Below are positions 9,437 to 50,600 of a stretch of DNA of 64,000 bases, in pieces (the first letter of the stretch is position 1; every line of letters begins with the position of its first letter). The DNA lies in contig JANWWK010000030.1 of the NCBI GenBank assembly GCA_025056175.1, positions 108,791-172,790 of the forward strand. The letters are read 5' to 3'. Source of the stretch: Anaerolineales bacterium (GTDB lineage: Bacteria > Chloroflexota > Anaerolineae > Anaerolineales > Villigracilaceae). The notes under the pieces are model-generated. The model did no database searches. It saw only the letters and a list, made by a program, of their open reading frames with translations, and was not told the DNA's origin. The translations under genes were made by a program, and so were the position numbers.

Positions 9437-10006
9437 ATGTCTTTCTACCGGCCCCACAGAATTCTTTTTCTGGCACTTTTGGCGTTTTGGGTGGTCTCCT
9501 GCCGTTTCATGCAGGTGATGGAATCGCTGCCACCGCTCGTGCCAACCGAGACGGCGACGCCCTCCCCGCCCACTGAAACACCTCTCCCCACCTTTACGCC
9601 GACCTTTCCTCCAACCGCCACGCTCGACCGTGGCGTTCAGAACCCCGCCACAGGCCACTGGTATTTGCTTGTGAATGAAAGACGCACGTTTCATGCTGCA
9701 CAGGAATACTGTCGTGGCATGGGCGCGCACCTGGTCACCATCGAAGACCAGGCTGAAAACCGCTTTGTTTACACGCTCTCTCCAGTCACCTGGTTGGGCG
9801 CCAGCGATGTGAATGCAGAGGGAGAATGGCTTTGGGTCACCGGTCAGCCGCTTACTTACGTCAACTGGGCTGAGGGCCAACCGAACAACTGCGGGATGCC
9901 TGATTGCCTCCCCGAACATTATCTCGCTTTTGATGAGACTATCCCCCTGCAATGGAACGATGTCGCTGCGCAAGAACGACCGTTCGTTTGCGAGTGGGAA
10001 GAATGA
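9437..10006 (+). CDS. C-type lectin domain (CTLD) lipoprotein/secreted protein
   Basis: Signal peptide with a lipobox-like VVSC, then a Pro/Thr linker. The CTLD signature follows: YCRGMGAHLVTIEDQAEN, WLGASD, EGEWLWVTG, YVNWAEGQPNN, WND and FVCEW at the C-terminus. Confidence 0.8.
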   Translation: MSFYRPHRILFLALLAFWVVSCRFMQVMESLPPLVPTETATPSPPTETPLPTFTPTFPPTATLDRGVQNPATGHWYLLVNERRTFHAAQEYCRGMGAHLVTIEDQAENRFVYTLSPVTWLGASDVNAEGEWLWVTGQPLTYVNWAEGQPNNCGMPDCLPEHYLAFDETIPLQWNDVAAQERPFVCEWEE

Positions 10007-37243: not shown

Positions 37244-39784
37244 ATGCCCGCCATGCGAAACATCACCCTGACCCTGTTGCTCTTTGCCCTGTTCTTCGGT
37301 CTCGTCTCGCCCGCACAGGCAGCGGACCCGATTCGGGTGTACTACGCCGGGCAGCGAGATTCGGTCTATACCGCGCTCACCCTCGCCCCAGCGGGCACCT
37401 TCGCTTTCGTGGATGACCCGCTTCAGGCGGATGTCTTCGTCCTGAACGGGGAGATTCCGCCCGATGAGCGCATTGCACGGCAAATCGAATCTGGTGCAGG
37501 AGTGGTGTTGCTGCTGGCGCCGGGCATTGATAGCGCGCAGGCGCAAAGGGTGACCGGCATTGCGCTCACGCTGCGGGCAACCGACAGCCCAATCAGCGTG
37601 ACGCAGGCGAAAGGCAGTTCCGACCCGCTCGTTACTGGCATCGTGTGGAACAGCGCGCCCCAATTGCGGGAGCGGTATCAGGTCGAATCGCCGGTTTCGT
37701 CTCTCATTCCGCTGGTGATGAGCTACGAAACCGGCGATTGGATTGTATTCTCTCACCGCGAGCGAGTCTTTTTGTGGACGGCCTGGCTGGGAGAGAATAA
37801 CCGCCAAATTCAGGAGTGGGCTTATTTCAACTACCTGGTCTATCACCTGACGGTGCGCGCCGCCGGGCAGACGCCGCTTCCCTTCGCAGAGTATCCGGCT
37901 TCGCCCATTCCGCACGCTGTTGAGCGTAACCTGATTGTGGGCGCAGTGCTGACGCTGGTGGCGCTGACGCTGGTGGCGTTCTTCTTTGTGCGCCGTTACA
38001 GCCTGGCGCACCCCGAAGTGTTAGACCGCATCGTTGCCGACCGCGCCGATTTCCAGACGCGTCAGGAACAGACCGCCTGGGAGGAAGTGGGCTTTCACCG
38101 CCCGCTTTCGGGCTTTTTGCTGGCGCTGGCGATGGGCATCGTCCTGTTCATCCCGCTCATCATCTACCAGAATCTCATCCTGCCCAACTACATCCTGCCC
38201 TCGGCACAGGCGCTGGGAACCTGGGGGCGCGTGACGCAGTTCTTCAACCTGATGTGGACGTTCTTCGACATGGGCACCTCGCTGGCCTTTATCAAGTATC
38301 TCAGCGAGTATCGCGTTCACGACCCCCGGCGCGGCATCCAGTTTGGGCAGTTGTTCGTGTGGTGGCAGGCCATTTCGGGCGCGATTCAGGTGGCGCTGGT
38401 GATTGCGCTCACGGCCACCTATGCGCCTTCTTCGGCCTTTGCGCTCTACACCTGGAGCGTCATCGTCCATGCTCTGATTCAAGTGCCGGGCTTTTATCAG
38501 GTCTTCCGTCACGCGCTCACCGGCTTTCAGCGGCAAGATTACTCCCGCGCACTCGACCTGGCGGTGACGATGTTCCCGCTGGTAGTGCAGCCAATCGTTG
38601 TGACGCTGATGTACCGCTGGGGAACAGCCAACCCGGTTTACGGCGGCGTGAATGGCGGCGTGATTGGCATGGGGATTGCGGCTTACCTGGTGGAGTTTCT
38701 CACCTTCCTGCTCGGCTTGTGGCTGTATCGCCGTATTGGCTATAACGCCGGCATTTTGTTCCTGGCGCACTTCGATTGGGAGACCGTGCGGACGAGCCTG
38801 CGCTTTGGCGTGTTTGCGATGGTCGGCTCGATGGCCTGGGCAGCCGGACAGGCGGCGGAAATTGCCATCACCCAGGCGCGGCTGGTCAATTACGCCGAAA
38901 TTTGGGGCAACTGGGGCATGGCGCAGAACTTCATCTTTGCCTTTAACATCGTGGCAATTCTGTTTGACGGCACGATGGCAGCGGTTTCGGAGGCGGTTTC
39001 CAGCGGCAAACGGCTGCTGGCGCAGTATTACAGCGCGATGATGTACAAATGGGGCGCGCTGATGAGCGCCTTTTTGGGCGCGGTCTTGCTGGCGGTGGGG
39101 CCAAAGTTCATTTTGGGCGCAACTGGCGTCGAGTTCGAGCGCGCTGCTGTGTACATCCTGCCGCTGGCCGTGTGGGGCGCGCTCCAATACCCCTCGTGGG
39201 TCTCCGACCAGGTGGCGCTGGGCGCCGATAAGCCCTGGCTCAAAGCGTTGATGGTCTTTGGCGAGCAAGTGCTGCGCGTGGCGCTGGTCTTCTTGCTGCT
39301 GGAACGCTTCCAGGTGACGGGTCTCATCATCGCCTACCTGATTGCCCTCAACGCCAAAAACATCACGGCCTACTTCGTCAACCATCGGCTGTGCTACCCG
39401 CAGAAATTCTATGCCTGGCAATCGTTGTTCGCGCCCCTCCTGGCCGCAGCGGCGCACTACCTGGTGCTGGATTTCATCAACAATCTGGTATGGCGTGATG
39501 ACCAGGTCACCAGCATCCTGATTTTCTTCATCGGCATTTTGCCTTCTTTTCCGGTGTATCTGTTCTTCTACGGGCTGGCCGGCGGCTGGGATGATGATAC
39601 CCTGGCCGAGTTCAGGCAGGCGGTGGAATTGAGCGGTTTCACCCGTCCGCTTGCATGGGTGATGTGGAAGGCCTCCGAACTCGGCGCGCGGCTCAGCCCG
39701 CTGACGGGGCGCTTCCCGATTACCATTCGCGCGGCGGCGATGGATGAAGCCCGCGCGCTGACCGAAGAACGGGTGCGGCTGTAA
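37244..39784 (+). CDS. Polysaccharide/oligosaccharide flippase-family (MOP/Wzx-like) membrane protein with a roughly 230-aa N-terminal extracytoplasmic domain
   Basis: 846 aa. Signal-like N-terminus, a soluble domain, then about 14 TM segments with the composition of 'polysaccharide biosynthesis protein' families. Confidence 0.55.
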   Translation: MPAMRNITLTLLLFALFFGLVSPAQAADPIRVYYAGQRDSVYTALTLAPAGTFAFVDDPLQADVFVLNGEIPPDERIARQIESGAGVVLLLAPGIDSAQAQRVTGIALTLRATDSPISVTQAKGSSDPLVTGIVWNSAPQLRERYQVESPVSSLIPLVMSYETGDWIVFSHRERVFLWTAWLGENNRQIQEWAYFNYLVYHLTVRAAGQTPLPFAEYPASPIPHAVERNLIVGAVLTLVALTLVAFFFVRRYSLAHPEVLDRIVADRADFQTRQEQTAWEEVGFHRPLSGFLLALAMGIVLFIPLIIYQNLILPNYILPSAQALGTWGRVTQFFNLMWTFFDMGTSLAFIKYLSEYRVHDPRRGIQFGQLFVWWQAISGAIQVALVIALTATYAPSSAFALYTWSVIVHALIQVPGFYQVFRHALTGFQRQDYSRALDLAVTMFPLVVQPIVVTLMYRWGTANPVYGGVNGGVIGMGIAAYLVEFLTFLLGLWLYRRIGYNAGILFLAHFDWETVRTSLRFGVFAMVGSMAWAAGQAAEIAITQARLVNYAEIWGNWGMAQNFIFAFNIVAILFDGTMAAVSEAVSSGKRLLAQYYSAMMYKWGALMSAFLGAVLLAVGPKFILGATGVEFERAAVYILPLAVWGALQYPSWVSDQVALGADKPWLKALMVFGEQVLRVALVFLLLERFQVTGLIIAYLIALNAKNITAYFVNHRLCYPQKFYAWQSLFAPLLAAAAHYLVLDFINNLVWRDDQVTSILIFFIGILPSFPVYLFFYGLAGGWDDDTLAEFRQAVELSGFTRPLAWVMWKASELGARLSPLTGRFPITIRAAAMDEARALTEERVRL

Positions 39785-39816
39785 ACGTCTCCCCGAAATT
39801 TGGGGCAAGAATCCTC

Positions 39817-39845
39817 TTGACACATCTCGCCCTCTGGCATAGAAT
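39817..39845 (+). promoter_or_regulatory. Near-consensus sigma-70 promoter TTGACA-17-TAGAAT of the aromatic operon leader
   Basis: -35 TTGACA at 39817..39822, exactly 17 nt of spacer, and -10 TAGAAT at 39840..39845. Confidence 0.7.
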
Positions 39846-39856
39846 ACCGCCCAATT

Positions 39857-39940
39857 ATGAACATGCCTGTTTCGACCCGCTGGTTTGCGTTTTACTTTTA
39901 TTACGGCTTCCGACCCCCGGTTGCCGGCGGCGGCGCTTAA
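39857..39940 (+). CDS. Attenuator leader peptide MNMPVSTRWFAFYFYYGFRPPVAGGGA (aromatic-codon-rich)
   Basis: 27 codons plus TAA. Codons 9-18 (39881..39910) are W F A F Y F Y Y G F, which is 8 aromatic residues of 10. It lies between a consensus promoter and an intrinsic terminator, upstream of aroH. No SD; the predicted 5' UTR is only 4-6 nt. Confidence 0.65.
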   Translation: MNMPVSTRWFAFYFYYGFRPPVAGGGA

Positions 39941-39974
39941 GAGCAGGCAAAGACCACCAGCCTGACCTGAAAAA

Positions 39975-40005
39975 GAGCGAGCCACACGGCACGCTCTTTT
40001 TGTTT
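39975..40005 (+). terminator. Intrinsic (attenuator) terminator upstream of aroH
   Basis: GAGCGAGCC (39975..39983), loop ACAC, GGCACGCTC (39988..39996). The stem is 9 bp with one A.A mismatch. It is followed by TTTTTGTTT (39997..40005) and preceded by an A-tract. The aroH ATG is 60 nt downstream. Confidence 0.75.
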
Positions 40006-40064
40006 ATCCGCGCGGGATGGTTTTCTTCCAGCTTCATTTGTCATTCATCTTCCAGGAGTCTCTT

Positions 40065-40436
40065 ATGCCCACTCGTGGTATCCGCGGCGCCATCACTGTC
40101 GAAGACGATTGCCCTGAACTTATCCTCTCTGCCACGCGCGAACTGCTTGAAGCCATTTTGCAGGCCAACCAGGGTATGACCCCCGAAGATATTGCCAGTG
40201 CGTTTTTCACCGTCACCGCCGATTTGTCCTCTACCTTTCCGGCCCAGGCCGCGCGGGAAATGGGCTGGAGCCAGGTGCCGATGATGTGTGCGCGTGAAAT
40301 CCCGGTTCCGGGTAGTTTACCGCGCGTCATCCGCGTGATGGTTCACTGGAACACCGAGCGGCATCAGAGCGAAATCGTCCACGTCTATTTGCGCGAGGCC
40401 GTCAAACTCCGTCCCGATTTGGTTGCCGCGCAGTAA
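40065..40436 (+). CDS. aroH: Chorismate mutase, AroH (monofunctional, B. subtilis) type
   Basis: Start MPTRGIRGAITV after GGAG. The RGIRGA N-terminus and a length of about 123 aa are typical of AroH-class chorismate mutase. Confidence 0.85.
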   Translation: MPTRGIRGAITVEDDCPELILSATRELLEAILQANQGMTPEDIASAFFTVTADLSSTFPAQAAREMGWSQVPMMCAREIPVPGSLPRVIRVMVHWNTERHQSEIVHVYLREAVKLRPDLVAAQ

Positions 40437-40493
40437 TTGCCCGTTTTTCCCTCATCTCTCATTCAATTTGTTCTTCAAGGAGGAGCCTGTCCT

Positions 40494-41546
40494 ATGATGA
40501 TAATCATGAAGCCCAACGCCACCCCGCAACAGGTGGAAAACGTTATCAGTCATATCAGAGCGGCTGGTCTGGCCGTTCACCTTTCTCAGGGTGTGGAGAC
40601 CACCATCATCGGCGCAATAGGGGAGACGCACAGCATCCCCACCGAGCGCTTCGAGGTGCTGGAGGGCGTGCAAGAAGTGCAACGCATTACCAAACCCTAC
40701 AAACTGGCCTCGCGCCAGTTCCACCCGGAGAATTCCGTCTTTCCGCTAGATGGGTTCACGGTGGGCGGCGAGGAAATTGCCGTGATTGCCGGGCCATGTT
40801 CGGTAGAAAGCCGTGCGCAAATTATCGAAACTGCCCATGCCGTCAAAGAAGCGGGGGCGTGCGCCCTGCGCGGTGGCGTCTTCAAGCCCCGTACCTCCCC
40901 CTATGCCTTTCAGGGGCTGGGCGAAGAAGGTCTGGAATACCTGGCCGAAGCCCGCGAACAGACCGGCCTGCCGATTGTGGTCGAGATTATGTCTCAAACC
41001 CAACTCGACCTGATGGTGAAATACGTGGATGTCTTACAGGTCGGTGCGCGGAACATGCAAAACTTCAACCTGTTGCGTGCCATTGGCGAAACCCGTACAC
41101 CCGTCCTGCTCAAACGCGGCCTTTCGGCCACCATCGAAGAACTGCTCATGTCTGCCGAATACATTCTTGCTGGGGGAAACAAACAAGTGATGCTCTGTGA
41201 ACGCGGCATCCGCACTTTTGAGACCGCCACCCGCAACACCACCGACATCAATGCCATCCCTGTCCTCAAATCGCTCACCCATCTCCCTGTCATTCTCGAC
41301 CCCTCCCATTCCACTGGTCATGCTGATTTCGTCAGCGCAATTGCCCGTGCCGCCATTGCCGCCGGCGCCGATGGCCTTATTGTGGAAGTGCATCCCAACC
41401 CTGCGCAGGCGCTTTCGGATGGGAAACAATCTCTCAAGCCGGAAGCGTTTGCACAAATGGTCAAACAGGTCGGGCAAATTGCCCAAATTATGGACCGCCG
41501 TTTGGCTGCCGTTCATGGCGCTTATGCTCCGCAGGGATGGGCGTGA
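40494..41546 (+). CDS. aroF: 3-deoxy-7-phosphoheptulonate (DAHP) synthase, type I-beta with N-terminal ferredoxin-like regulatory domain, copy 1
   Basis: Start [10 protein letters not shown] after AGGAGG. About 65-aa N-terminal domain followed by a KDSA/DAHPS I-beta barrel ([24 protein letters not shown]). Confidence 0.85.
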
Positions 41547-41604
41547 TGCACTAATCAGCGAACAGTGGTCAGTGAGCGGTGAGCAATGAGCGAGGAGTTT
41601 TACT

Positions 41605-42651
41605 ATGATGATAATTATGCAGCCTGGCGCAACGCGCGCGCAAATCGAACACGTCATTGAACATATCCGTGAACAGCGGCTTTCGCCACACGTCATCGAA
41701 GGTGTCGAACAAACGGTTATTGGCGCGGTGGGCGAGAGCCACGCCGTGCCGACCAGTGTCTTTGAGGGATTGCCCGGCGTTCAAACCGTGCAACGCATCA
41801 GCAAACCTTATAAACTGGCCTCGCGTCAATTCCATCCTCACGATTCCGTCTTTCCGCTGGATGGGTTCACGGTGGGAGGGGAGGAAATTGCCGTGATTGC
41901 CGGACCGTGTTCTGTGGAGGGACGTTCTCACATCCTTGAAATTGCCCATGCCGTCAAAGAAGCCGGCGCCAACGCCCTGCGCGGGGGCGCCTTCAAACCG
42001 CGTACCTCGCCTTACGCCTTTCAGGGGTTGGGCGAAGAAGGCCTGGAATACCTGGCCGAAGCCCGCGAACAGACCGGCCTTCCGGTCGTTGCCGAAGTGA
42101 TGGCAATTTCTCAAATCGAAATCATGACCCGTTACGTGGATGTTCTGCAAATCGGCGCGCGCAACATGCAAAATTTCAACCTTCTGCGCGCAGTGGGCGA
42201 AACCCGCACGCCCGTCCTGCTCAAACGGGGGCTTTCGGCCACCATCGAAGAACTGCTGATGTCGGCGGAGTACATCTTGAGCGGTGGCAACCATCATGTT
42301 ATCCTGTGTGAACGCGGCATCCGCACCTTTGAGACTGCCACCCGTAACACCACCGACATCAATGCCATTCCGGTCCTCAAAGCGCTCACGCATTTGCCGG
42401 TGTTTCTTGACCCTTCCCATTCCACCGGCCTGGCCGATTACGTGACCGCAATTTCCAAAGCCGCCATTGCCGCCGGTGCCGATGGTCTTATCATCGAAGT
42501 CCACCAGGACCCGGCGCATGCCCTGTCCGACGGCAAGCAATCGCTCACGCCCGAAGCCTTTGCCCGCCTGATTCGTCAGGTGCGGGCGGTAGCCGAAGCG
42601 GTTGAGCGCCGTCTGGCTGGCGTTCCACAATCTGCAACCCGTCCGGTCTGA
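41605..42651 (+). CDS. aroF: DAHP synthase, type I-beta with N-terminal regulatory domain, copy 2
   Basis: Start [10 protein letters not shown] after GAGGAG. Same architecture as copy 1. Confidence 0.85.
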
Positions 42652-42652
42652 T

Positions 42653-43504
42653 ATGGACTCTGGCTTTTCGCTCAAATCTGCTACAGTAGCGGTTGTGGGC
42701 CTGGGGTTGATGGGCGGCTCGCTGGCCCTCGCGCTGCGGGGACAGTGTTCCCGTCTGCTGGGCATAGACCCCGACCTGGCTGCGCTGGAACTGGCTTGCC
42801 GTCAAAACATCGTAGACCAGGCCGAAACAGACCCCGCTAAACTGCTTCCACAGGCCGACCTGGTCATTCTGGCCGCGCCGGTCCCCGCCATCCTTGACCT
42901 GCTCGAAGACCTGCCCAACCTGACGCCCAACTCCTGTATTGTGCTGGACCTGGGCTCGACCAAACGCGCGGTGGTCGAACGAATGGCTGCCCTGCCTGCA
43001 CGTTTTGACCCTATCGGTGGACATCCCATTTGCGGCAAAGAGAAGCTTTCGCTTGCCAATGCCGAACGCACTCTGTACTACGCCGCGCCTTTCCTGCTGA
43101 CTCCGCTCCCGCGTACCACCGAACGCGCCCGCACCGCTGCGGTACAATTGCTCACCGTTTTGGGCGCCAAACCCATCTGGCTCGACCCCATCGAACATGA
43201 CCGCATCCTGGCGCACACCAGTCATCTGCCTTTTCTGCTCTCATCCATCCTGGCGCTGGCGACCCCAGCCGAATGTGCCCCTCTCATTGGCCCCGGCTTT
43301 CGTTCCACTGCCCGGCTGGCTGGCACGCCTTCCAGCATGATGATGGGGATTTTGCAGACCAATCGCGAGAACATCCTCGCCGCGCTCGAAGCCGTGCAAG
43401 AGGAATTGGCGCTTCTCATTTCCGCCCTGGCGGAAGACGACTATGACACCCTGCAGCTGACCCTCGATTCAGCCCGCAAAAAGTATATGGAACTGGTTGG
43501 CTAA
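42653..43504 (+). CDS. tyrA: Prephenate (or arogenate) dehydrogenase
   Basis: Start MDSGFSLKS, 1 nt after the DAHPS-2 stop. Rossmann motif VAVVGLGLMGGSLALAL and a prephenate dehydrogenase C-terminal domain. Confidence 0.8.
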   Translation: MDSGFSLKSATVAVVGLGLMGGSLALALRGQCSRLLGIDPDLAALELACRQNIVDQAETDPAKLLPQADLVILAAPVPAILDLLEDLPNLTPNSCIVLDLGSTKRAVVERMAALPARFDPIGGHPICGKEKLSLANAERTLYYAAPFLLTPLPRTTERARTAAVQLLTVLGAKPIWLDPIEHDRILAHTSHLPFLLSSILALATPAECAPLIGPGFRSTARLAGTPSSMMMGILQTNRENILAALEAVQEELALLISALAEDDYDTLQLTLDSARKKYMELVG

Positions 43505-44811
43505 TGGAAATTACGCCTCTTTCTGCTCCTCTGCGTGCCTCTGTGCGTGTTCCTGGCTCCAAATCACTCACCAACCGCGCTCTGCTCGTTGCAGCGCTGG
43601 CCGAAGGCACAACGCGCCTGACGAATGCCCTCTTCAGCGATGATTCGCGTTATTTTGCGCGCGCTTTGCAAACGCTTGGCTTCGATGTCATCCTGGATGA
43701 AGATGCCAGACAAATGACCGTGACCGGCCGGGGTGGAGAGATTCCCGCTCCTCACGCCGAATTGTACATCGGAAACGCCGGCACCGCTGCGCGCTTCCTG
43801 AGTGCCTTTCTCACGCTGGGACAGGGAGAATACGTGTTAGATGGCGATGCGCGCATGCGAGAACGCCCGATTGGTGACCTGGTGGCCGCGCTCCAATCGC
43901 TTGGGGCGCGCCTGAGCGCTTTGAACGCCAGAGAGAACCCCCAGATGCCCGATTTCTCCTCGCTCTGCCCTCCTCTCAAAATCCACGCTTCCGGCTTACC
44001 CGGCGGTAAAACCACCGTTGCCGGCAACATCTCCAGCCAGTTTCTCTCAGCGTTGTTGATGGTCGCTCCGTATGCCCGTCAACCGGTTGAAATCGAAGTT
44101 TCTACCGAACTTAACTCGAAACCGTATGTAGAGATGACCCTTGCCGTCATGCGCGACTTTGGTGTGACGGTGGAGCGTGACGGCTACCAGTTCTTCAAAA
44201 TCTCTCCCGCTCGCTACAAAGCACGCACGCAGGATTACACCATCGAGTCTGATGCCTCTGCGGCCTCTTACTTTTTTGCCGCGCCCGCCGTGTGTGGCGG
44301 CTGGGTACGGGTTGAAAACATCTCCCGCCGTTCGGTGCAGGGCGATATTGCTTTTCTGGAAGTTCTGCAGCAGATGGGCTGTTCGGTTCGAGAGGAGCAA
44401 AACGCCATTGTCGTTACCTGTCAACCGCCGCTGACTGGCATCGAAATAGACATGCGCGACATCCCCGATACGGCTCAAACCCTGGCTGCGATTGCCCCTT
44501 TTGCTGCTTCTCCTACCCGCATTCGTGGCATCGCCTCGGCGCGCGTCAAAGAGACCGACCGGATTGCCGCTACCTGCGCCGAACTATCCCGTCTGGGCGT
44601 GAAGGTGGAAGAACACCCCGACGGCATGACCATCTATCCGCTTTCGTCAGCCGATTTCCGGCCCGCGATGGTCAGAACGTACAACGACCATCGGATGGCA
44701 ATGGCGTTCTCGCTCATCGGTTTGCGCCTGCCCGGCATTGTTATCGAAAATCCCTCCTGCGTCTCCAAAACCTTTCCCAATTTTTTCACCGTCCTGGAGA
44801 CCCTGCGTTGA
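43504..44811 (+). CDS. aroA: 3-phosphoshikimate 1-carboxyvinyltransferase (EPSP synthase)
   Basis: VPGSKSLTNRALLVAAL N-terminal motif. 435 aa. TAATG overlap with tyrA. Confidence 0.9.
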   Translation: MEITPLSAPLRASVRVPGSKSLTNRALLVAALAEGTTRLTNALFSDDSRYFARALQTLGFDVILDEDARQMTVTGRGGEIPAPHAELYIGNAGTAARFLSAFLTLGQGEYVLDGDARMRERPIGDLVAALQSLGARLSALNARENPQMPDFSSLCPPLKIHASGLPGGKTTVAGNISSQFLSALLMVAPYARQPVEIEVSTELNSKPYVEMTLAVMRDFGVTVERDGYQFFKISPARYKARTQDYTIESDASAASYFFAAPAVCGGWVRVENISRRSVQGDIAFLEVLQQMGCSVREEQNAIVVTCQPPLTGIEIDMRDIPDTAQTLAAIAPFAASPTRIRGIASARVKETDRIAATCAELSRLGVKVEEHPDGMTIYPLSSADFRPAMVRTYNDHRMAMAFSLIGLRLPGIVIENPSCVSKTFPNFFTVLETLR

Positions 44812-45677
44812 TGCTTTCTTCCGCCGCATCTCTTCCCATGCCCTACACCCTCGGTCTGACCGGCTTTCCCCTCGGTCACTCGCTCTCCCCAAAAATTCAT
44901 GCTGCTGCGCTGGCTGCCTGCGGCCTGGAAGGGACGTATGCGCTCTTCCCGGTTTCGCCGGAGCAGCCTTCTGAGCTTGCGGCTTTGCTTCACCGACTGC
45001 GCACCGGAGAAATTCACGGCCTCAACGTCACCATCCCCCACAAGCAGAGCATTTTGCCCCTACTCGATGACCTGACCGAAACGGCGCGTGCGATTGGGGC
45101 GGTGAACACCATTTGCCTGCGTCAGGGAAACCTGATGGGTGACAACACCGATGCGCCCGGTTTCCTGGCCGACCTGAACCGCTTTTTAAGTCAATCCCAC
45201 ATCCCAAACCCGCGCCAGGCGCTTGTTTTGGGGGCGGGCGGCTCGGCGCGTGCGGTGGTGTATGCCCTGTGCAGCGCCGGCTGGCAGGTGACTGTGGCTG
45301 CACGCCGTCTCGAACAGGCACGGCAGCTGGCCCAGACCTTTTCGCAAGCGGCTGTCCGCGTAGCGGATTTTTCCCAACTGCCCGCGTTTGCGGCTCTCAA
45401 TCCCTGCTTTGTGCTTATCAACACCACTCCGCTGGGCATGACGCCCCACACGGAAACCTGTCCCTGGCCCGAAGACCTGCCTTTACCGGCGCAGGCTGTT
45501 GTTTATGACCTGGTGTACAATCCCCGTGAAACCCGTCTTGTTCAGCGTGCGCGTGCGAGCGGGCTGCCTGCCGTCAGTGGGCTGGGGATGCTTATCGAAC
45601 AGGCCGCCCTGGCCTTTGAGATTTGGACTGGCTGCCGCCCGCCGCGCGAGGCCCTTTGGCGCGCTGTTGAATCCTGA
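44811..45677 (+). CDS. aroE: Shikimate dehydrogenase
   Basis: The ATG overlaps the aroA TGA (TGATG). Motifs SLSPKIHAAA, LNVTIPHK and GAGGSARAV. Confidence 0.9.
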   Translation: MLSSAASLPMPYTLGLTGFPLGHSLSPKIHAAALAACGLEGTYALFPVSPEQPSELAALLHRLRTGEIHGLNVTIPHKQSILPLLDDLTETARAIGAVNTICLRQGNLMGDNTDAPGFLADLNRFLSQSHIPNPRQALVLGAGGSARAVVYALCSAGWQVTVAARRLEQARQLAQTFSQAAVRVADFSQLPAFAALNPCFVLINTTPLGMTPHTETCPWPEDLPLPAQAVVYDLVYNPRETRLVQRARASGLPAVSGLGMLIEQAALAFEIWTGCRPPREALWRAVES

Positions 45678-45721
45678 TACTTCGTTTCCCCTTCTCTTTG
45701 TCAACTGTTTCTGGAGTTCCC

Positions 45722-46897
45722 ATGCTTCGTTTGCTGACTGCCGGAGAATCCCACGGACCCTCTCTCACTGCCATTCTCGATGGCATTCCCGCCGGGCTGC
45801 CGCTTGCCCCTGAAATCATCAACCAGGAACTGGCGCGCCGTCAACAGGGATACGGCGCGGGTGGGCGCATGAAAATCGAACGCGACACCGTCCGCATTTT
45901 GGGTGGTGTGATGGGCGGCGAAACCACTGGCGCGCCGCTTGCACTTCTCGTCGAAAACGCCGACCACATCAAGTGGAAGGGCAAACCAATTGCGCCATTT
46001 ACTGCGCCCCGCCCGGGACATGCCGATTTGACCGGCGCCATCAAATACGCTTACCGCGACCTGCGTCCGGCTCTCGAACGCGCCTCGGCCCGCGAAACCA
46101 CAATGCGGGTTGCAGCCGGGGCTATCTGTAAACACCTGCTTGCACAATTCGGCATCGTCATTGGCGGATACGTCTGCGCCATTGGCGAAATTCAGGCCGA
46201 TTTTGGCGCGATGTCTTACCCGGAGCGTTTCCAGGCGGCAGAAGCCTCTGAGGTGCGCTGTCCCGATTCTGGCGCGGCAGACCGCATGAGGGCGCGCATC
46301 GAAGCCATTATTCATGGCAAAGACACACTTGGCGGCGTGCTGGAAATCGTCGCCCTCAACGTGCCACCGGGTCTGGGCAGCTATGCCCAGTGGGATAGAC
46401 GCCTGGAAGCCCGCCTGGCGCAGGCGGTGATGAGTGTGCAGGCCATCAAAGGCGTCGAAATTGGCGATGCTTTCGAGAATGCCCGTCTGCCCGGCACCCA
46501 GGCGCATGATGCCATTTGCCTGACGCCAGAGACCAGCCACCTCACACGCCCTACCAATCGCGCCGGCGGCATAGAAGGCGGCATTTCCAACGGTCAGCCA
46601 ATTGTCATCCGCGCCGCCATGAAACCGATTGCCACCACGCTGACCCCGCAAACCACCGTTGACCTGGCAACCAGACAGCAAGGTCCAACCCGTTACGAAC
46701 GCTCCGACTTTTGCCCCGTGCCGCGTGCCGTGCCGATTTTAGAAGCGATGGTGGCGTTCGTGCTGGCCGATGCCCTGCTCGAAAAACTGGGCGGCGACTC
46801 ATTGGCCGAGATGAAGCCTCGTTTTGAGACGTTGCGGCGCGCCTGTTTGGAGGATTTGCCGATGGAAAACCGCGAACATCTCTGGTGGGAAGGATGA
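45722..46897 (+). CDS. aroC: Chorismate synthase
   Basis: Start MLRLLTAGESHGPSL after GGAG. Typical chorismate synthase signatures throughout. Confidence 0.9.
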   Translation: MLRLLTAGESHGPSLTAILDGIPAGLPLAPEIINQELARRQQGYGAGGRMKIERDTVRILGGVMGGETTGAPLALLVENADHIKWKGKPIAPFTAPRPGHADLTGAIKYAYRDLRPALERASARETTMRVAAGAICKHLLAQFGIVIGGYVCAIGEIQADFGAMSYPERFQAAEASEVRCPDSGAADRMRARIEAIIHGKDTLGGVLEIVALNVPPGLGSYAQWDRRLEARLAQAVMSVQAIKGVEIGDAFENARLPGTQAHDAICLTPETSHLTRPTNRAGGIEGGISNGQPIVIRAAMKPIATTLTPQTTVDLATRQQGPTRYERSDFCPVPRAVPILEAMVAFVLADALLEKLGGDSLAEMKPRFETLRRACLEDLPMENREHLWWEG

Positions 46898-48516
46898 CAC
46901 CTGACGCGAAACGTGATAAATTTATGCGAAAATCCGCTCGCTTCACCGACCCTCGCATGAATCACATCTTTCTTTATGGTCCCCCTGGTTCTGGCAAAAG
47001 CAGTGTAGGGCGCGTTTTGGCCTCCAACCTGGAAATGGAATTTGTTGACCTGGATGCCGAAATCGTGGCCTTCACTGGTCAAACCATCCCGCAAATCATG
47101 GCGGAATGGGGTGAATCTGGTTTCCGTGACATCGAAAGCACTGCCCTGCGGCGCGTGACCAAAGGCCCGCCGCGCGTCATTGCCCTGGGAGGCGGTGCCT
47201 TGCTCCGCGCGCAAAACCGTTCGCATGCTGAATCCAAAGGCGTTGTGATTGCGCTCTCGGCCCAAATGGAAACGCTTCAGGAGCGTCTGGCCCAGGATTC
47301 GACCGAGCGCCCGCTTCTGGCCGATGACCTGCCCGGCAAACTGGCGCGCCTGCTGGAACGCCGCTCTGACCACTACCGCTCCTATGATTTGCGCGTAGCC
47401 ACCGATGGCCTTTCTCCTGAAGATGTAGCCTGGCACATTCAGACCATGATTGGCCGTTTCCGGGTGCGCGGTATGGGACAATCTTATGATGTGGTTGTGC
47501 AGCCGGGCGGCTTCGATACGCTTCCCGATTGGTTGCGGCGCAGCGGCCTGGAAGAAGGCCCGATGGTTATCGTCAGCGACGAAAACGTGGCCCCCCTGTA
47601 TGCCGAACGCCTGATGAAACTGCTCCGACGCAATGGCATGCACTCCACCCTGGTTACCATTCCGGCAGGAGAACAACATAAAACCCTCGAAACCATTACC
47701 GAGTTGTGGCGTAAATTTCTGGCAATGGGGTTGGACCGCAAAAGTACCTTGCTGGCTCTGGGTGGGGGAGTCGTGGGTGACCTGGCCGGCTTCGCCGCCG
47801 CAACCTTCATGCGTGGCATGAACTGGGTTGTTTTGCCCAGTACCTTGCTGGCAATGGTAGATGCCTCCATGGGCGGTAAAACCGGCTTCGACTTACCCGA
47901 AGGCAAAAACCTGGTGGGTGCGTTCTACCCCCCAAAGCTGGTGTTTGCCAACCCCTATATGCTTTCCACTTTGAACGATGCCGAACTCCGCTCCGGCCTG
48001 GCCGAAGTGGTGAAACATGGCGTCATTGCCGACCCGGCTCTGTTTACGCTCTGTTCGGGCGGTTTGGAAGCCGTCAAGGATGATGTTACCCAAATCGTTC
48101 AGCGTGCGATGGCGGTTAAAGTGCAAATCATCGAAGCCGACCCCTACGAAAAAGGCATTCGTGCTGCGCTCAATTTCGGCCACACCATCGGACATGCCAT
48201 TGAAAAAGTCTCAGATTACCGCATTCGACACGGGGAGGCCGTTTCGATGGGCATGGTGGCAGAAGCGCGTCTGGCTGAACGCTTGTGGATTTGCTCCAAA
48301 GGGCTGGCAAACCGCATTGCTGCCACCCTGAACAGCCTGGGTCTGCCCACCGAAATTCCGTCCGATTTGCCGCGCGAAGCCCTGCTCGCAGCCATGAAAC
48401 ACGATAAAAAACGCAAAGGCGGCGTCGTCCACTTTGCTTTGCCTGAAGAAATTGGTCAGATGCAGGTGGGCGTCGCTCTGGATGACCTGCGCCTGGTTTT
48501 CGAGGAAAAATCATGA
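46894..48516 (+). CDS. aroKB: Bifunctional shikimate kinase / 3-dehydroquinate synthase (AroK-AroB fusion)
   Basis: ATGA overlap with aroC. The N-terminal part has the P-loop YGPPGSGKSS and shikimate kinase character. The C-terminal roughly 360 aa has AroB motifs (GGGVVGDLAGFAAATFMRG, DASMGGKTG, LNFGHTIGHAIE). Confidence 0.85.
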   Translation: MTPDAKRDKFMRKSARFTDPRMNHIFLYGPPGSGKSSVGRVLASNLEMEFVDLDAEIVAFTGQTIPQIMAEWGESGFRDIESTALRRVTKGPPRVIALGGGALLRAQNRSHAESKGVVIALSAQMETLQERLAQDSTERPLLADDLPGKLARLLERRSDHYRSYDLRVATDGLSPEDVAWHIQTMIGRFRVRGMGQSYDVVVQPGGFDTLPDWLRRSGLEEGPMVIVSDENVAPLYAERLMKLLRRNGMHSTLVTIPAGEQHKTLETITELWRKFLAMGLDRKSTLLALGGGVVGDLAGFAAATFMRGMNWVVLPSTLLAMVDASMGGKTGFDLPEGKNLVGAFYPPKLVFANPYMLSTLNDAELRSGLAEVVKHGVIADPALFTLCSGGLEAVKDDVTQIVQRAMAVKVQIIEADPYEKGIRAALNFGHTIGHAIEKVSDYRIRHGEAVSMGMVAEARLAERLWICSKGLANRIAATLNSLGLPTEIPSDLPREALLAAMKHDKKRKGGVVHFALPEEIGQMQVGVALDDLRLVFEEKS

Positions 48517-48959
48517 CCGCTCTGCTCATCTTGCATGGTCCGAATCTGAACCTGCTTGGAACACGCGAACCGGACGTATACGGACGTCTTACGCTGGACG
48601 AAATCAACGCTCGTTGTATCGCACTCGGACGTGAATTCGGAGTAGAAGTGCGCTGCTTCCAATCCAATCATGAAGGCGCGTTGATAGATGCCCTGCACGA
48701 GGCGCGTCAGTGGGCCGATGGCGTGGTCTTCAACCCCGGCGGTTACACTCACACCTCCGTAGCCCTGCGCGATGCCATCACCGCCATCGGCCTGCCGGTG
48801 GTTGAAGTCCACCTTTCCAACGTCTATGCCCGCGAGGACTTTCGCCATCACTCTCTGCTCTCTGCCGTCTGTCGTGGCAAAATCAGCGGACTGGGCTGGC
48901 GCTCTTACACGATGGCGCTGCGCTTTCTGGTGGAATTGCTGACCGAAAACCAGCAGTAA
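48513..48959 (+). CDS. aroQ: Type II 3-dehydroquinate dehydratase
   Basis: ATGA overlap with aroKB. Motifs ILHGPNLNLLGTREP and NPGGYTHTSVALRDA. Confidence 0.9.
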   Translation: MTALLILHGPNLNLLGTREPDVYGRLTLDEINARCIALGREFGVEVRCFQSNHEGALIDALHEARQWADGVVFNPGGYTHTSVALRDAITAIGLPVVEVHLSNVYAREDFRHHSLLSAVCRGKISGLGWRSYTMALRFLVELLTENQQ

Positions 48960-49097
48960 GCTACGCTAATGTTACAGGCTCAGGCTTTTTTTATCGCAAT
49001 TTCACTTCGACCATTATCTAAATTGCCAACATCGGGTAAAATCAACCTATCCCTTTCTTTACTTCCCACCTATCTCTGCTCCCTTCTGGAGACCTTC

Positions 49098-50600
49098 ATG
49101 AACCCCACCTATCAACAACTCAAAGCCCGTCTGGCTGAAATTGCCGACCTGCACCACGCTGCTGCTCTCATCGGCTGGGACCAGCAAGTGTACATGCCTC
49201 CCGCCGCCGCCGAAGAACACGGCAACATGCTGGGTACGCTTGGCAAAATTGCCCACGAGAAATTCACCTCCGATGAGACCGGCAAACTGCTCGAAGAACT
49301 TAAACGCGACTTGCCCCACCTCGACCCCGACTCAGAAGAATACCGCCTCATCAAAATCACTGCCAAAGATTATGACCGCGCGACTCGCGTTCCGGCGGAG
49401 TTCGTCGTCGAACAGGCGCAGGTGACGGCCATTGCCCACCAGGCCTGGGCCGAAGCCCGCGCCCGGAGCGAATTCGGCCTCTTTCAGCCGCATCTCGAAA
49501 AAATCCTCGACCTGGTGCGCCGTTACGTCACCTTCTTCCCCCCCGCCGACCATCCCTACGATACGCTGCTCGATAACTTCGAGCCGGGCATGAAAACCGC
49601 TGAAGTGCAGGCCATTTTCGAAGCTCTGCGTCCCCGTCAGGTCGAACTGATTCGCGCGATTGGCGAACGTCCCCAGGTGGAAGACTCCTTCCTGCACCTG
49701 CAATACGATGAAAAAACGATGTGGGATTTCAGCGTTGAAGTCGCCACCGCCTTTGGCTACGATTGGAAACGCGGACGCCAGGACCCCACCGTTCATCCCT
49801 TCTGCACCTCTTTCGGTGTCAACGATGTCCGCATCACCTCTCGCTGGGTGCCCGACCTGCCGTTTGCCCTGCTCTTCGGCACCATGCACGAGACCGGTCA
49901 TGCCCTTTACGAACAGGGTGTGGGCCTTCAGTGGAATCGCACCCCCGTCGAAGGCGGCGCCTCGCTGGGGCTGCACGAATCCCAAAGCCGCATGTGGGAG
50001 AACCTTGTCGGACGCTCCCGCCCCTTCTGGGAATACTTCTACCCCAAACTGCAAGCGCGCTTCCCTTCCCAACTGGCGAACGTCTCGCTAGACCAGTTCT
50101 ACCGCACCATCAACAAAGTCCAGCCCTCCCTGATTCGCGTCGAAGCCGACGAAGCCACCTACAACCTGCACATCATGCTCCGCCTCGAAATCGAAATTGC
50201 CATGCTCGAAGGTAAAGTGGCCGTCCGCGACCTGCCCGAACTGTGGAACGCCAAAATGCAGGATTACCTCGGCCTGACCCCACCCAACGATGCGCTTGGC
50301 GTTTTGCAAGATGTTCACTGGTCAGGCGGTATGATTGGTTACTTCTCCACCTACGCGCTTGGCAACATCATCTCTGCCCAGCTATGGGAAAAATTCAACT
50401 CCACCCATCCACAGCTGGAAGATGAAATGCGTTCTGGCGATTTCTCCGCGCTCCTTTCCTGGCTGCGCGCCGAAATTCACCAGTACGGGCGCAAATACGA
50501 GCCGCAAGAACTGGTTCAGCGCGTCACCGGCGAGAGCATCAACTCGGCTCCTTACCTGCGCTACCTGCAAAAGAAATACGCCGAAATTTACAACCTGTAG
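49098..50600 (+). CDS. M32 carboxypeptidase (Taq-type metallocarboxypeptidase)
   Basis: Start MNPTYQQLK after GGAG. Motifs HPFC, HETGHALYEQG, HESQSRMWEN and QDVHWS. Confidence 0.85.
   Translation: MNPTYQQLKARLAEIADLHHAAALIGWDQQVYMPPAAAEEHGNMLGTLGKIAHEKFTSDETGKLLEELKRDLPHLDPDSEEYRLIKITAKDYDRATRVPAEFVVEQAQVTAIAHQAWAEARARSEFGLFQPHLEKILDLVRRYVTFFPPADHPYDTLLDNFEPGMKTAEVQAIFEALRPRQVELIRAIGERPQVEDSFLHLQYDEKTMWDFSVEVATAFGYDWKRGRQDPTVHPFCTSFGVNDVRITSRWVPDLPFALLFGTMHETGHALYEQGVGLQWNRTPVEGGASLGLHESQSRMWENLVGRSRPFWEYFYPKLQARFPSQLANVSLDQFYRTINKVQPSLIRVEADEATYNLHIMLRLEIEIAMLEGKVAVRDLPELWNAKMQDYLGLTPPNDALGVLQDVHWSGGMIGYFSTYALGNIISAQLWEKFNSTHPQLEDEMRSGDFSALLSWLRAEIHQYGRKYEPQELVQRVTGESINSAPYLRYLQKKYAEIYNL

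Follow-up and report, generated by a model that had tools for sequence, protein, structure and literature searches.

In the trpL leader of Escherichia coli, four RNA regions pair in alternative combinations: 1:2 forms a pause structure or anti-antiterminator, 2:3 the antiterminator, and 3:4 the terminator. In the pheL–pheA and pheM–pheST systems, an open reading frame (ORF) with Phe codons is followed by a terminator and a competing antiterminator, and the position of the ribosome decides between the two (PMC3082878, PMC11802643). Here, we describe a leader region upstream of aroH on the forward strand of a 64,000-nucleotide stretch of an Anaerolineales genome (contig JANWWK010000030.1; this whole stretch is called the window below, and all positions refer to it). 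Its promoter, short ORF rich in aromatic codons, and intrinsic terminator very likely act as a ribosome-mediated leader-peptide transcription attenuator of the trpL/pheL type, which would gate a shikimate/chorismate mutase/tyrA operon.

As in E. coli pheL–pheA and pheM–pheST, a short ORF, a terminator, and a putative competing antiterminator stand before a pathway gene. However, the element has no sequence or structure homology to pheL. Its codons are mixed for Phe, Tyr, and Trp, whereas those of pheL are for Phe only, its start is leaderless-like and has no Shine–Dalgarno (SD) sequence, and it belongs to the phylum Chloroflexota. The target also differs, being the whole common pathway with chorismate mutase and tyrA, in contrast to pheA alone. 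An SD-led leader start, which is absent here, is typical of enterobacterial examples, although the class does not depend on it. We rejected the models of T-boxes, riboswitches, and known leaders (Phe, Trp, His, Leu, Thr, and leu/phe) as explanations of the element, since none scored at its gathering threshold. The whole window had no Rfam match at gathering thresholds, and a search of 39500–40400 with expect values (E) up to 10 returned two chance-level unrelated matches (14.3 and 13.1 bits) and no leader family or T-box. On a relative with a consensus-type leader (L016), Phe_leader RF01859 reached 16.8 bits against a gathering threshold of 55 (E = 2.3), and the other Rfam matches were terminator-driven small RNA noise.

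The nearest functional analogue would be aroR of Corynebacterium glutamicum, whose leader contains Phe-Tyr-Phe and precedes aroF (Neshat et al. 2014, summarised in PMC11802643 and PMC7356990), and which is reported to respond to the limitation of Phe, not of Tyr (PMC11802643). As far as these summaries describe aroR, the likeness is a functional analogy, a mixed-aromatic leader placed before a 3-deoxy-D-arabino-heptulosonate 7-phosphate (DAHP) synthase gene, where the common aromatic pathway begins. The F-Y-F motif given there contrasts with the 6–10 aromatic codons of the present leaders, in which Phe is about as frequent as Tyr and one Trp is added. Additionally, the DAHP synthase gene is here the second in a nine-gene operon with chorismate mutase and tyrA. 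A first-pass annotation of the window, made by a model from the letters alone, had called a mixed aromatic leader rare and had pointed to the Corynebacterium case. The rarity and the precedent hold (PMC11802643), but the aroR motif is only Phe-Tyr-Phe. A single leader that integrates Phe and Tyr, and usually Trp, for the whole common pathway would be a much richer version of the aroR idea.

Leader peptides that lack an SD sequence are known from two other lineages: 14 leaderless leader peptides were predicted in Deinococcus deserti (PMC4007540), and polycysteine leaderless short ORFs serve as attenuators in mycobacteria (bioRxiv 10.1101/834739). The present leader shares with them a short ORF at or near the 5' end, without an SD sequence and enriched in codons for the amino acids of the downstream pathway. 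The amino acids and targets are different, and at the 10-nt spacing seen in most relatives a 5' untranslated region (UTR) of 2–4 nt is predicted here instead of a 5'-terminal AUG. Thus, this would be the third lineage with leader peptides that appear to start without an SD sequence. In Chloroflexi, only a small share of the genes is predicted to be leaderless, with a mean of 4.7% in 4 of 12 genomes (PMC3160421).

Full-text searches returned no report of leader-peptide attenuation for Chloroflexi/Anaerolineae, as the first-pass annotation had supposed for Chloroflexota-like genomes, and no report of a Tyr-codon leader; a survey of Actinobacteria found no Phe or Tyr leaders (PMC1262725). As far as the searched literature and Rfam show, the phylum has no earlier leader-peptide attenuator. 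Anaerolineales/Villigracilaceae are Chloroflexota that abound in wastewater, sediments, and groundwater, and most of them are uncultured. The element provides a well-supported candidate mechanism for controlling aromatic amino acid biosynthesis in cis in these bacteria. We regard it as a new family within a textbook mechanism, whose regulation is a well-supported prediction from comparative genomics.

A Leader ORF with an Aromatic Codon Run Precedes aroH

The features of the element and of its proposed target are the following:

39817..39845, forward strand: sigma-70-type promoter (-35 TTGACA at 39817–39822, 17-nt spacer, -10 TAGAAT at 39840–39845)
39846..39856, forward strand: gap between the -10 hexamer and the leader ATG, 11 nt, without an SD sequence
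39857..39940, forward strand: leader ORF of 27 codons plus TAA, translating to MNMPVSTRWFAFYFYYGFRPPVAGGGA and a stop
39881..39910, forward strand: regulatory codon run WFAFYFYYGF, the proposed stall sites (1 Trp, 4 Phe, and 3 Tyr in 10 codons)
39904..39926, forward strand: P1 stem-loop within the leader ORF, CGGC-UU-CCG-ACCCC-CGG-UU-GCCG, whose 5' strand takes in the final aromatic codons
39924..39938, forward strand: putative antiterminator 5' strand, CCGGCGGCGGCGCUU (consensus CCGUUGGUGGCGCUU), overlapping the final codons of the leader and base 1 of its stop codon
39938..39940, forward strand: leader stop codon TAA, inside the invariant GCGCUUAAG
39944..39964, forward strand: P2 hairpin, CAGGC...GCCUG, after the stop codon and before the terminator
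39970..40005, forward strand: intrinsic terminator with an A-tract, the stem GAGCGAGCC / GGCACGCTC (39975–39996), the loop ACAC, and the T-run TTTTTGTTT (39997–40005)
40054..40067, forward strand: SD sequence AGGAG (40054–40058) and ATG (40065–40067) of aroH
40065..48959, forward strand: operon of nine genes proposed to be regulated (aroH, two DAHP synthase genes, tyrA, aroA, aroE, aroC, aroK–aroB, aroQ)

Most of this outline had been drawn in the first-pass annotation, and its parts were recovered at the same places. The near-consensus promoter was found at identical coordinates and matches the consensus in 11 of 12 positions. Translation returned the 27-codon ORF between 39857 and 39940, and the 8 aromatic codons among the 10 of 39881–39910 proved to be a unique maximum, as this run is the only 10-codon stretch with at least 8 aromatic codons in the six frames of the 64-kb window. 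The terminator at 39975–40005 follows an A-tract as described, and the leader ATG has no SD sequence and a very short predicted UTR. A density of 8 aromatic codons in 10 was reached by none of 30 shuffles. The second most aromatic 10-codon stretch of the window, EFFFWHFWRFGW at about 9459–9494 on the forward strand, has 7 of 10. Thus, a short ORF with its own start and stop lies between the promoter and the first structural gene, and an intrinsic terminator lies between this ORF and that gene, as in other attenuators. The ORF is an unannotated one, of the small kind missed by gene callers.

The Element Is Conserved and Linked to aroH

The AroH protein of the window is identical to one annotated in an Anaerolineales metagenome-assembled genome (MAG) and has thousands of relatives, the best 120 of which are at least 77% identical to it. 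A scan of species-representative genomes with an AroH alignment yielded 80 loci from Anaerolineales or Candidatus Villigracilaceae-type MAGs, with AroH 76–89% identical to that of the window. Enough upstream DNA was available in 77 of them, the other three being cut within 25–157 nt of aroH. The promoter, the aromatic leader ORF, and the terminator were all present upstream of aroH in 77 of the 77 informative loci, so the aromatic run and the terminator co-occur throughout, which is what the comparison proposed in the first-pass annotation was meant to reveal. The gene order aroH–DAHP synthase–(DAHP synthase)–tyrA–aroA is kept in the relatives. In contrast, the upstream neighbour in the window, an ORF of 846 amino acids on the forward strand (37244–39784) that ends directly before the attenuator promoter and has no Pfam or NCBIfam match, is absent beside aroH in all 80 related loci. 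As this neighbour is not conserved, the element belongs to the aro operon. For the same reason we rejected the idea that the terminator ends the 846-codon gene: that gene is non-syntenic, and the promoter–leader–terminator block always stands with aroH.

The linkage was also visible in a scan of metagenome contigs that did not depend on aroH, in which the RNA pattern CGCTTAAG, gap, AAGAGCGAG, gap, CGCTCTTT was found at 120 or more loci. Among the matches listed, aroH follows 19–197 nt after the terminator in 107 of the 109 metagenome loci with at least 250 nt downstream, and more than 100 metagenome loci combine the promoter, the ORF with its aromatic run, and the terminator. In some of the loci, AroH is only 60–69% identical to that of the window; their leaders include MKQSYRFFFSFYYYGSRTRLPLVALKK and MNQSYRFYFSYYFYYGSSPRTPFVALKR. 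Between the terminator and aroH, both the sequence and the length (19–197 nt) vary, and no conserved promoter is present there. No further copy of the motif was found in the window. Taken together, the elements exist, are conserved, and are linked to aroH. The first-pass reading of the region as a leader-peptide attenuator before an aromatic operon is borne out by the 77 of 77 loci, the metagenome loci, and the codon-periodic substitutions presented below.

One metagenome match (L102, 4091–4166) was rejected as a family member, being a chance pattern match at a tRNA-like gene with no aroH downstream; this gene seemingly has an insertion and is followed by a terminator in an AT-rich contig. In another (L197), the attenuator is followed by a reverse-strand ORF that resembles a DNA methyltransferase/type IIG enzyme, and no aroH is present, which could reflect a rearrangement or a chimeric assembly. 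In four loci (L024, L044, L057, and L080), an extra GC-rich palindrome, e.g., CCCTCACGTTCCCCTCTCCCATTGGGAGAGGATTAGGGGTGAGGG, lies between the attenuator and aroH and has the look of a repetitive extragenic palindromic (REP) element.

Selection Acts on the Aromatic Codons

The 77 species-level loci together with 114 metagenome loci among the matches listed gave 191 leaders. These encode 151 distinct peptides, and every one of them has 6–10 aromatic residues. The consensus of the 77 species loci is M-L-K-S-x-R-W-F-A-F-Y-F-Y-Y-G-F-R-x-S-V-A-V-G-G-A, and the variants of the run in relatives include WFAYFYFYGF, WFSYFYFYGF, FYFAYYFNGL, and WFAYYYFTAP. Over the 191 leaders, the substitutions in the core of the run follow a strict 3-nt period. 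In codons 5–7 of the run, at least 97% of sequences have T at the first position. T and A are about equally common at the second, an exchange that swaps Phe and Tyr, and the third is T or C, a synonymous difference. Such a pattern is the signature of selection for Phe/Tyr codons and not for a fixed RNA or peptide sequence, so the aromatic codons are under codon-level selection and the enrichment for codons of the pathway's end products is kept by it. Additionally, the codon-periodic substitutions argue strongly that the leader ORF is translated.

The first-pass annotation had proposed that Trp, Phe, and Tyr act as a joint signal. Phe and Tyr indeed appear as the main part of it, but the Trp codon is single and is absent from 43 of the 191 leaders (22%), being present in 148; among the species, 65 of 77 have it and 12 do not. 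Since it is single and so often missing, Trp sensing would be an optional addition. A core signal of Phe plus Tyr fits the gene content of the operon, in which chorismate mutase and tyrA are present and trp genes are lacking.

Downstream of the run, the constraint is of another kind. From the last Tyr codon on, the nucleotides (UACGGUUUCCGA-NNN-UCGGUUGCCGUUGGUGGCGCUUAAGUAGACAG) are kept in any reading frame: where a 1-nt insertion or deletion falls in or after the run, the same RNA is read in another frame and the peptide ends in TAPNRLPLVALK and a stop, with variants ending in LPLVALK. These frame-shifted variants stop at a UAG that lies 4 nt beyond the usual UAA. In 185 of 188 leaders, the stop codon is at +4 (156 leaders), +8 (22), or +11 (7) of CGCUUAA. 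As the frame-shifted variants keep the nucleotides and the stop site is kept as well, the conservation of GFRxSVAVGGA reflects RNA conservation together with the need to end translation at this place. A functional C-terminal peptide GFRxSVAVGGA was rejected, since these variants keep the nucleotides and lose the peptide. The approximately 190 aligned leaders, with the frame-shifted variants among them, form a clean natural dataset in which codon-level and RNA-level constraints can be separated, and would support a new Rfam family. In two leaders, L007 (Ca. Villigracilis affinis) and L066, the third frame or an extra A moves the stop 17–24 nt further, close to the terminator. The contig name of L007 (tig...) suggests a long-read assembly, in which a homopolymer indel error is possible.

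The Terminator and the P1 and P2 Hairpins

The terminator hairpin of the window folds at -18.4 kcal/mol (z = -4.4), a stability reached by none of 200 shuffles, and its energy ranges from -18.4 to -19.4 kcal/mol across folds. Its stem has one A.A mismatch, because of which a simple terminator scanner skipped the GAGCGAGCC/GGCACGCTC hairpin, and it is prolonged by A-U pairs. The terminator is present in all related loci, with 97.9% of alignment cells paired and four pairs with compensatory changes, and the hairpin and a run of at least 4–6 T are kept in essentially all loci.

P1, which had no place in the first-pass annotation, was found in the minimum free energy (MFE) and centroid folds of the window and in the RNAalifold consensus, and appears in the alignment as ACGG/CCGU plus CCGA/UCGG. 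Its apical helix shows compensatory changes, GC to AU in 4 sequences and AU to GC in 12. P2, which also appears in the folds of the window and is seen in the alignment as ACAGA/UCUGU, has such changes in four of its five pairs. When P1, P2, and the terminator were tested together as the terminator-state structure on an alignment of the 77 sequences (alignment A2), 92.5% of cells were paired and 11 pairs had changed on both sides. On four of five measures, the observed value was reached by none of 500 shuffles, and on the remaining one, further pair types, by 22 of 500. Slid registers all fell far below this structure, and RNAalifold independently recovered P1 and the terminator. The comparison thus gives structural support to all three hairpins.

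Directly after the attenuator terminator, the window has a small hairpin, ATCCGCGCGGGAT followed by GGTTTTCTT (40006–40030, forward strand), which could act as a second, weak terminator in tandem; among the relatives, no conservation of this hairpin was seen.

A Candidate Antiterminator Overlaps the Leader Stop Codon

In truncated or masked folds, the strand 39924–39938 pairs with 39975–39989, i.e., with the 5' arm and loop of the terminator; in the truncated folds of the window, the pairs are 39929–39931 with 39981–39983 and 39934–38 with 39975–79. The duplex has an energy of -17.0 kcal/mol in the window. When the alignment was cut before the 3' arm of the terminator, RNAalifold paired GG...CGCUU with the 5' arm. 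A sliding-window comparison found the CCGUUGGUGGCGCUU segment to be the best 16-nt partner of the terminator 5' arm and loop in 65 of the 77 sequences, and the mean energy over these 77 is -17 kcal/mol for the antiterminator duplex vs. -22 kcal/mol for the terminator hairpin. In the antiterminator alignment, 93.7% of cells are paired and the columns are nearly invariant.

A stalled ribosome was mimicked in single-sequence MFE folds by masking the run and the P1 5' strand and leaving out the 3' arm of the terminator. CGCUU:GAGCG then formed in 77 of 77 sequences, GG:CC in 63, and the helix CCGU:ACGG, which reaches the terminator loop, in 66. With the P1 5' strand left free, the CCGU:ACGG helix was lost to P1, and P1 therefore behaves as an anti-antiterminator in these folds; this is probably its role, and that of a pause hairpin is possible. 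The first-pass annotation had singled out GGCGCTT as a candidate antiterminator, which turns out to be the core of the best-scoring alternative pairing, longer than had been proposed; folding with masks for stalled ribosomes, which it had recommended, produced this core in every sequence.

The placement of the strand also fits the logic of ribosome position suggested there, as the stop codon lies inside the antiterminator segment. The last aromatic codon of the window ends 13 nt before the strand (39910 vs. 39924). Given the known footprint size of the ribosome, a ribosome at the stop would cover the strand, and a ribosome stalled in the run would leave it free. Three further observations weakly support the antiterminator pairing. 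The segment resembles the 3' arm of the terminator (GGU-GG-CGCUU vs. GGUCU-CGCUC). The lower stem and two loop positions of the terminator are unusually invariant, as expected for a sequence with two pairing partners. In two divergent leaders (L043 and L066), the terminator 5' arm has AG in place of GA, the 3' arm has a compensating change, and pairing with the UU of the antiterminator is still possible. We regard the CCGUUGGUGGCGCUU segment as the putative antiterminator.

An alternative antiterminator, UGGUUUGCG-UUUU, formed by the Arg-Trp-Phe-Ala codons, was rejected. It pairs with the terminator 5' arm in the ribosome-free fold of the window, but does so in only about 15–19 of 77 sequences, with a mean energy of about -12 vs. 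-17 kcal/mol, and we treat this pairing as secondary or incidental.

Several observations weigh against the attenuator as drawn here. The 77-sequence alignment contains no covariation in the antiterminator, and the observed values equal those of shuffles, although this test is uninformative because the columns are nearly invariant. The middle three base pairs of the antiterminator are mismatched (C.A) in about 20 of the 77 sequences, and the masked or truncated fold of the window that contains it is only as stable as shuffles (z = -0.05). In ribosome-free folds, the terminator 5' arm pairs variably, with the antiterminator segment in 17 of 77 sequences and with the Arg-Trp-Phe codon region in about 15–19. 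Moreover, efficient translation of the leader is assumed, and no SD sequence precedes the leader ATG in the window or in the relatives. The 10–11-nt gap after the -10 hexamer also predicts 2–5 extra nucleotides at the 5' end, so the mRNA would not be strictly leaderless.

Proposed Mechanism

The arrangement of these elements leads us to infer that transcription starts 2–5 nt upstream of the leader AUG, that the ORF is translated, that the antiterminator pairing described above takes place, and that the operon responds to aromatic amino acids. A ribosome translating the 27-codon ORF from its leaderless-like start would sense how much charged tRNA-Phe and tRNA-Tyr is available and, in most lineages, how much charged tRNA-Trp. 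With plentiful aromatic aminoacyl-tRNA, the ribosome would reach the stop codon and cover CCGGCGGCGGCGCUU (39924–39938). The terminator hairpin (39970–40001) would then form, RNA polymerase would stop at the T-run (39997–40005), and the operon would be off. If Phe or Tyr (or Trp) were scarce, the ribosome would stall at 39881–39910, melt the 5' strand of P1, and free 39924–39938. The freed strand would pair with the terminator 5' arm and loop (39975–39989), no terminator would form, and transcription would read through into the nine genes.

The four-region logic of E. coli trpL can be drawn on this scheme. The P1 5' strand, to which the last aromatic codons belong, would correspond to region 1, and the P1 3' strand together with CCGUUGGUGGCGCUU to region 2; the terminator 5' arm and loop would be region 3, and the 3' arm and U-run region 4. 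In contrast to trpL, no more than the first 4 nt of region 2 would be sequestered by P1, the stop codon falls within region 2, the regulatory codons are those for Phe and Tyr, and P2 is an additional hairpin placed after the stop codon and ahead of the terminator.

Alternative Explanations

The promoter and the terminator that flank the ORF are both strong, and its run RWFAFYFYYGF is hydrophobic and partly conserved, as if it was an independent gene for an aromatic hydrophobic micropeptide, with the aro operon transcribed from a separate downstream promoter. We find this extremely unlikely: the C-terminal half of the peptide is wholly different in the frame-shifted variants while the nucleotides are unchanged, Phe and Tyr are freely swapped among the 151 peptides of the 191 leaders, and the element is strictly linked to aroH across a spacer of variable length (19–197 nt) without a conserved promoter. 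The element could also be a translation-independent RNA switch, in which a protein, a tRNA, or a small ligand binds the P1/S2/P2 RNA and selects the terminator or the antiterminator, the ORF being incidental. In favour of it, the P1-to-terminator RNA is unusually conserved, with many columns at 90% or more, beyond what simple alternative pairing seems to need, and the antiterminator lacks covariation. However, an invariant ATG stands at a constant spacing from the -10 hexamer, a stop codon stands beside the antiterminator segment in every frame class, and substitutions that preserve aromatic residues with a 3-nt period would hardly be expected of an untranslated RNA. Rfam gave no match to a riboswitch, a T-box, or a protein-binding leader, and P1 and P2 are tiny hairpins with variable loops. 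Thus, a switch of this kind is very improbable.

Leader-peptide control might also be exerted by another route, e.g., through Rho-dependent termination or mRNA stability that depends on leader translation, with the hairpin and T-run being minor or serving as a processing or stability element. Translation-dependent polarity of a short ORF is known from mycobacterial Cys leaders (bioRxiv 10.1101/834739), and the folds leave the untranslated default state ambiguous. Since a canonical hairpin and T-run with compensatory changes are kept in essentially all loci and the alternative pairing overlaps the terminator 5' arm, we give this route very little credence in comparison with attenuation by the terminator itself. 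A different possibility concerns a function in addition to attenuation. The rnTrpL RNA and the peTrpL peptide of Sinorhizobium act in trans (PMC6614838, PMC7298713), and by analogy the terminated leader transcript of about 150 nt, or the peptide, might have a second function in trans, which we consider unlikely. Such a function would explain the near-invariance of the P1-to-terminator segment (GCGCUUAAGUAGACAG ... AAGAGCGAGACC), which persists in a family whose AroH proteins are only 60–89% identical to that of the window and seems to exceed the simple need for a terminator and an antiterminator. Alternatively, the nascent R-W-F-A-F-Y-F-Y-Y-G-F chain could modulate the stalling of the ribosome.

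Promoter and Start of the Leader

The TTGACA-17-TAGAAT promoter is the single promoter-like site that the promoter scan found within 38500–41500. The relatives keep TTGAC and TAGAAT, and 76 of 78 sequences have a spacer of 17 nt. In 71 of these 78, the ATG follows the -10 hexamer at 10 nt; 6 have a distance of 8 nt, and the window has one of 11 nt. In the larger set, 152 of 188 leaders show the 10-nt distance. By the standard spacing between the -10 hexamer and the start site, a leaderless-like 5' UTR of approximately 2–5 nt is predicted. In a metagenome subclade (L143, L146, L099, and L165), with AroH 66–69% identical to that of the window and leaders that open with M-N/K-Q-...-H-L-W-F-A-Y, the gap is approximately 13–20 nt, also without an SD sequence. 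Because of this longer gap, the leaderless-like start is not universal in the family.

In many relatives (e.g., L016, L021, L023, and L024), the word TTGACGCAT-N5-RTGACRGGCATAGAAT recurs in the promoter spacer, as judged by eye. It does not occur in the window, where the equivalent place is 39823–39839. This word could be a candidate operator, and with it a second, protein-based layer of control.

The aroH Operon and Its Neighbourhood

The first gene of the operon encodes an AroH-type chorismate mutase (TIGR01796, 151.5 bits). NCBIfam and Pfam identified the tyrA product as prephenate dehydrogenase, aroK–aroB as a fusion, and aroQ as type II. The nine aromatic genes of the first-pass annotation are all there, but their translational coupling is not general: they are tightly packed and not all overlap, as 58 nt separate the second DAHP synthase gene from its predecessor and aroC is preceded by a gap of 20 nt. 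Scans returned no strong promoter or terminator inside the operon, only weak matches at chance level; with no strong internal signal of either kind, control of the whole operon by the attenuator is plausible.

The two DAHP synthase genes of the window stand in tandem (40437–42651), and at least 26 of the 80 relatives show just one such gene. Both encoded enzymes carry a ferredoxin-like N-terminal domain. DAHP synthases with this domain are feedback-inhibitable, which by analogy would add control at the enzyme level. A gene for an M32 (Taq-type) carboxypeptidase (48969–50600, forward strand) starts 9 nt after aroQ and may be co-transcribed with the aro operon.

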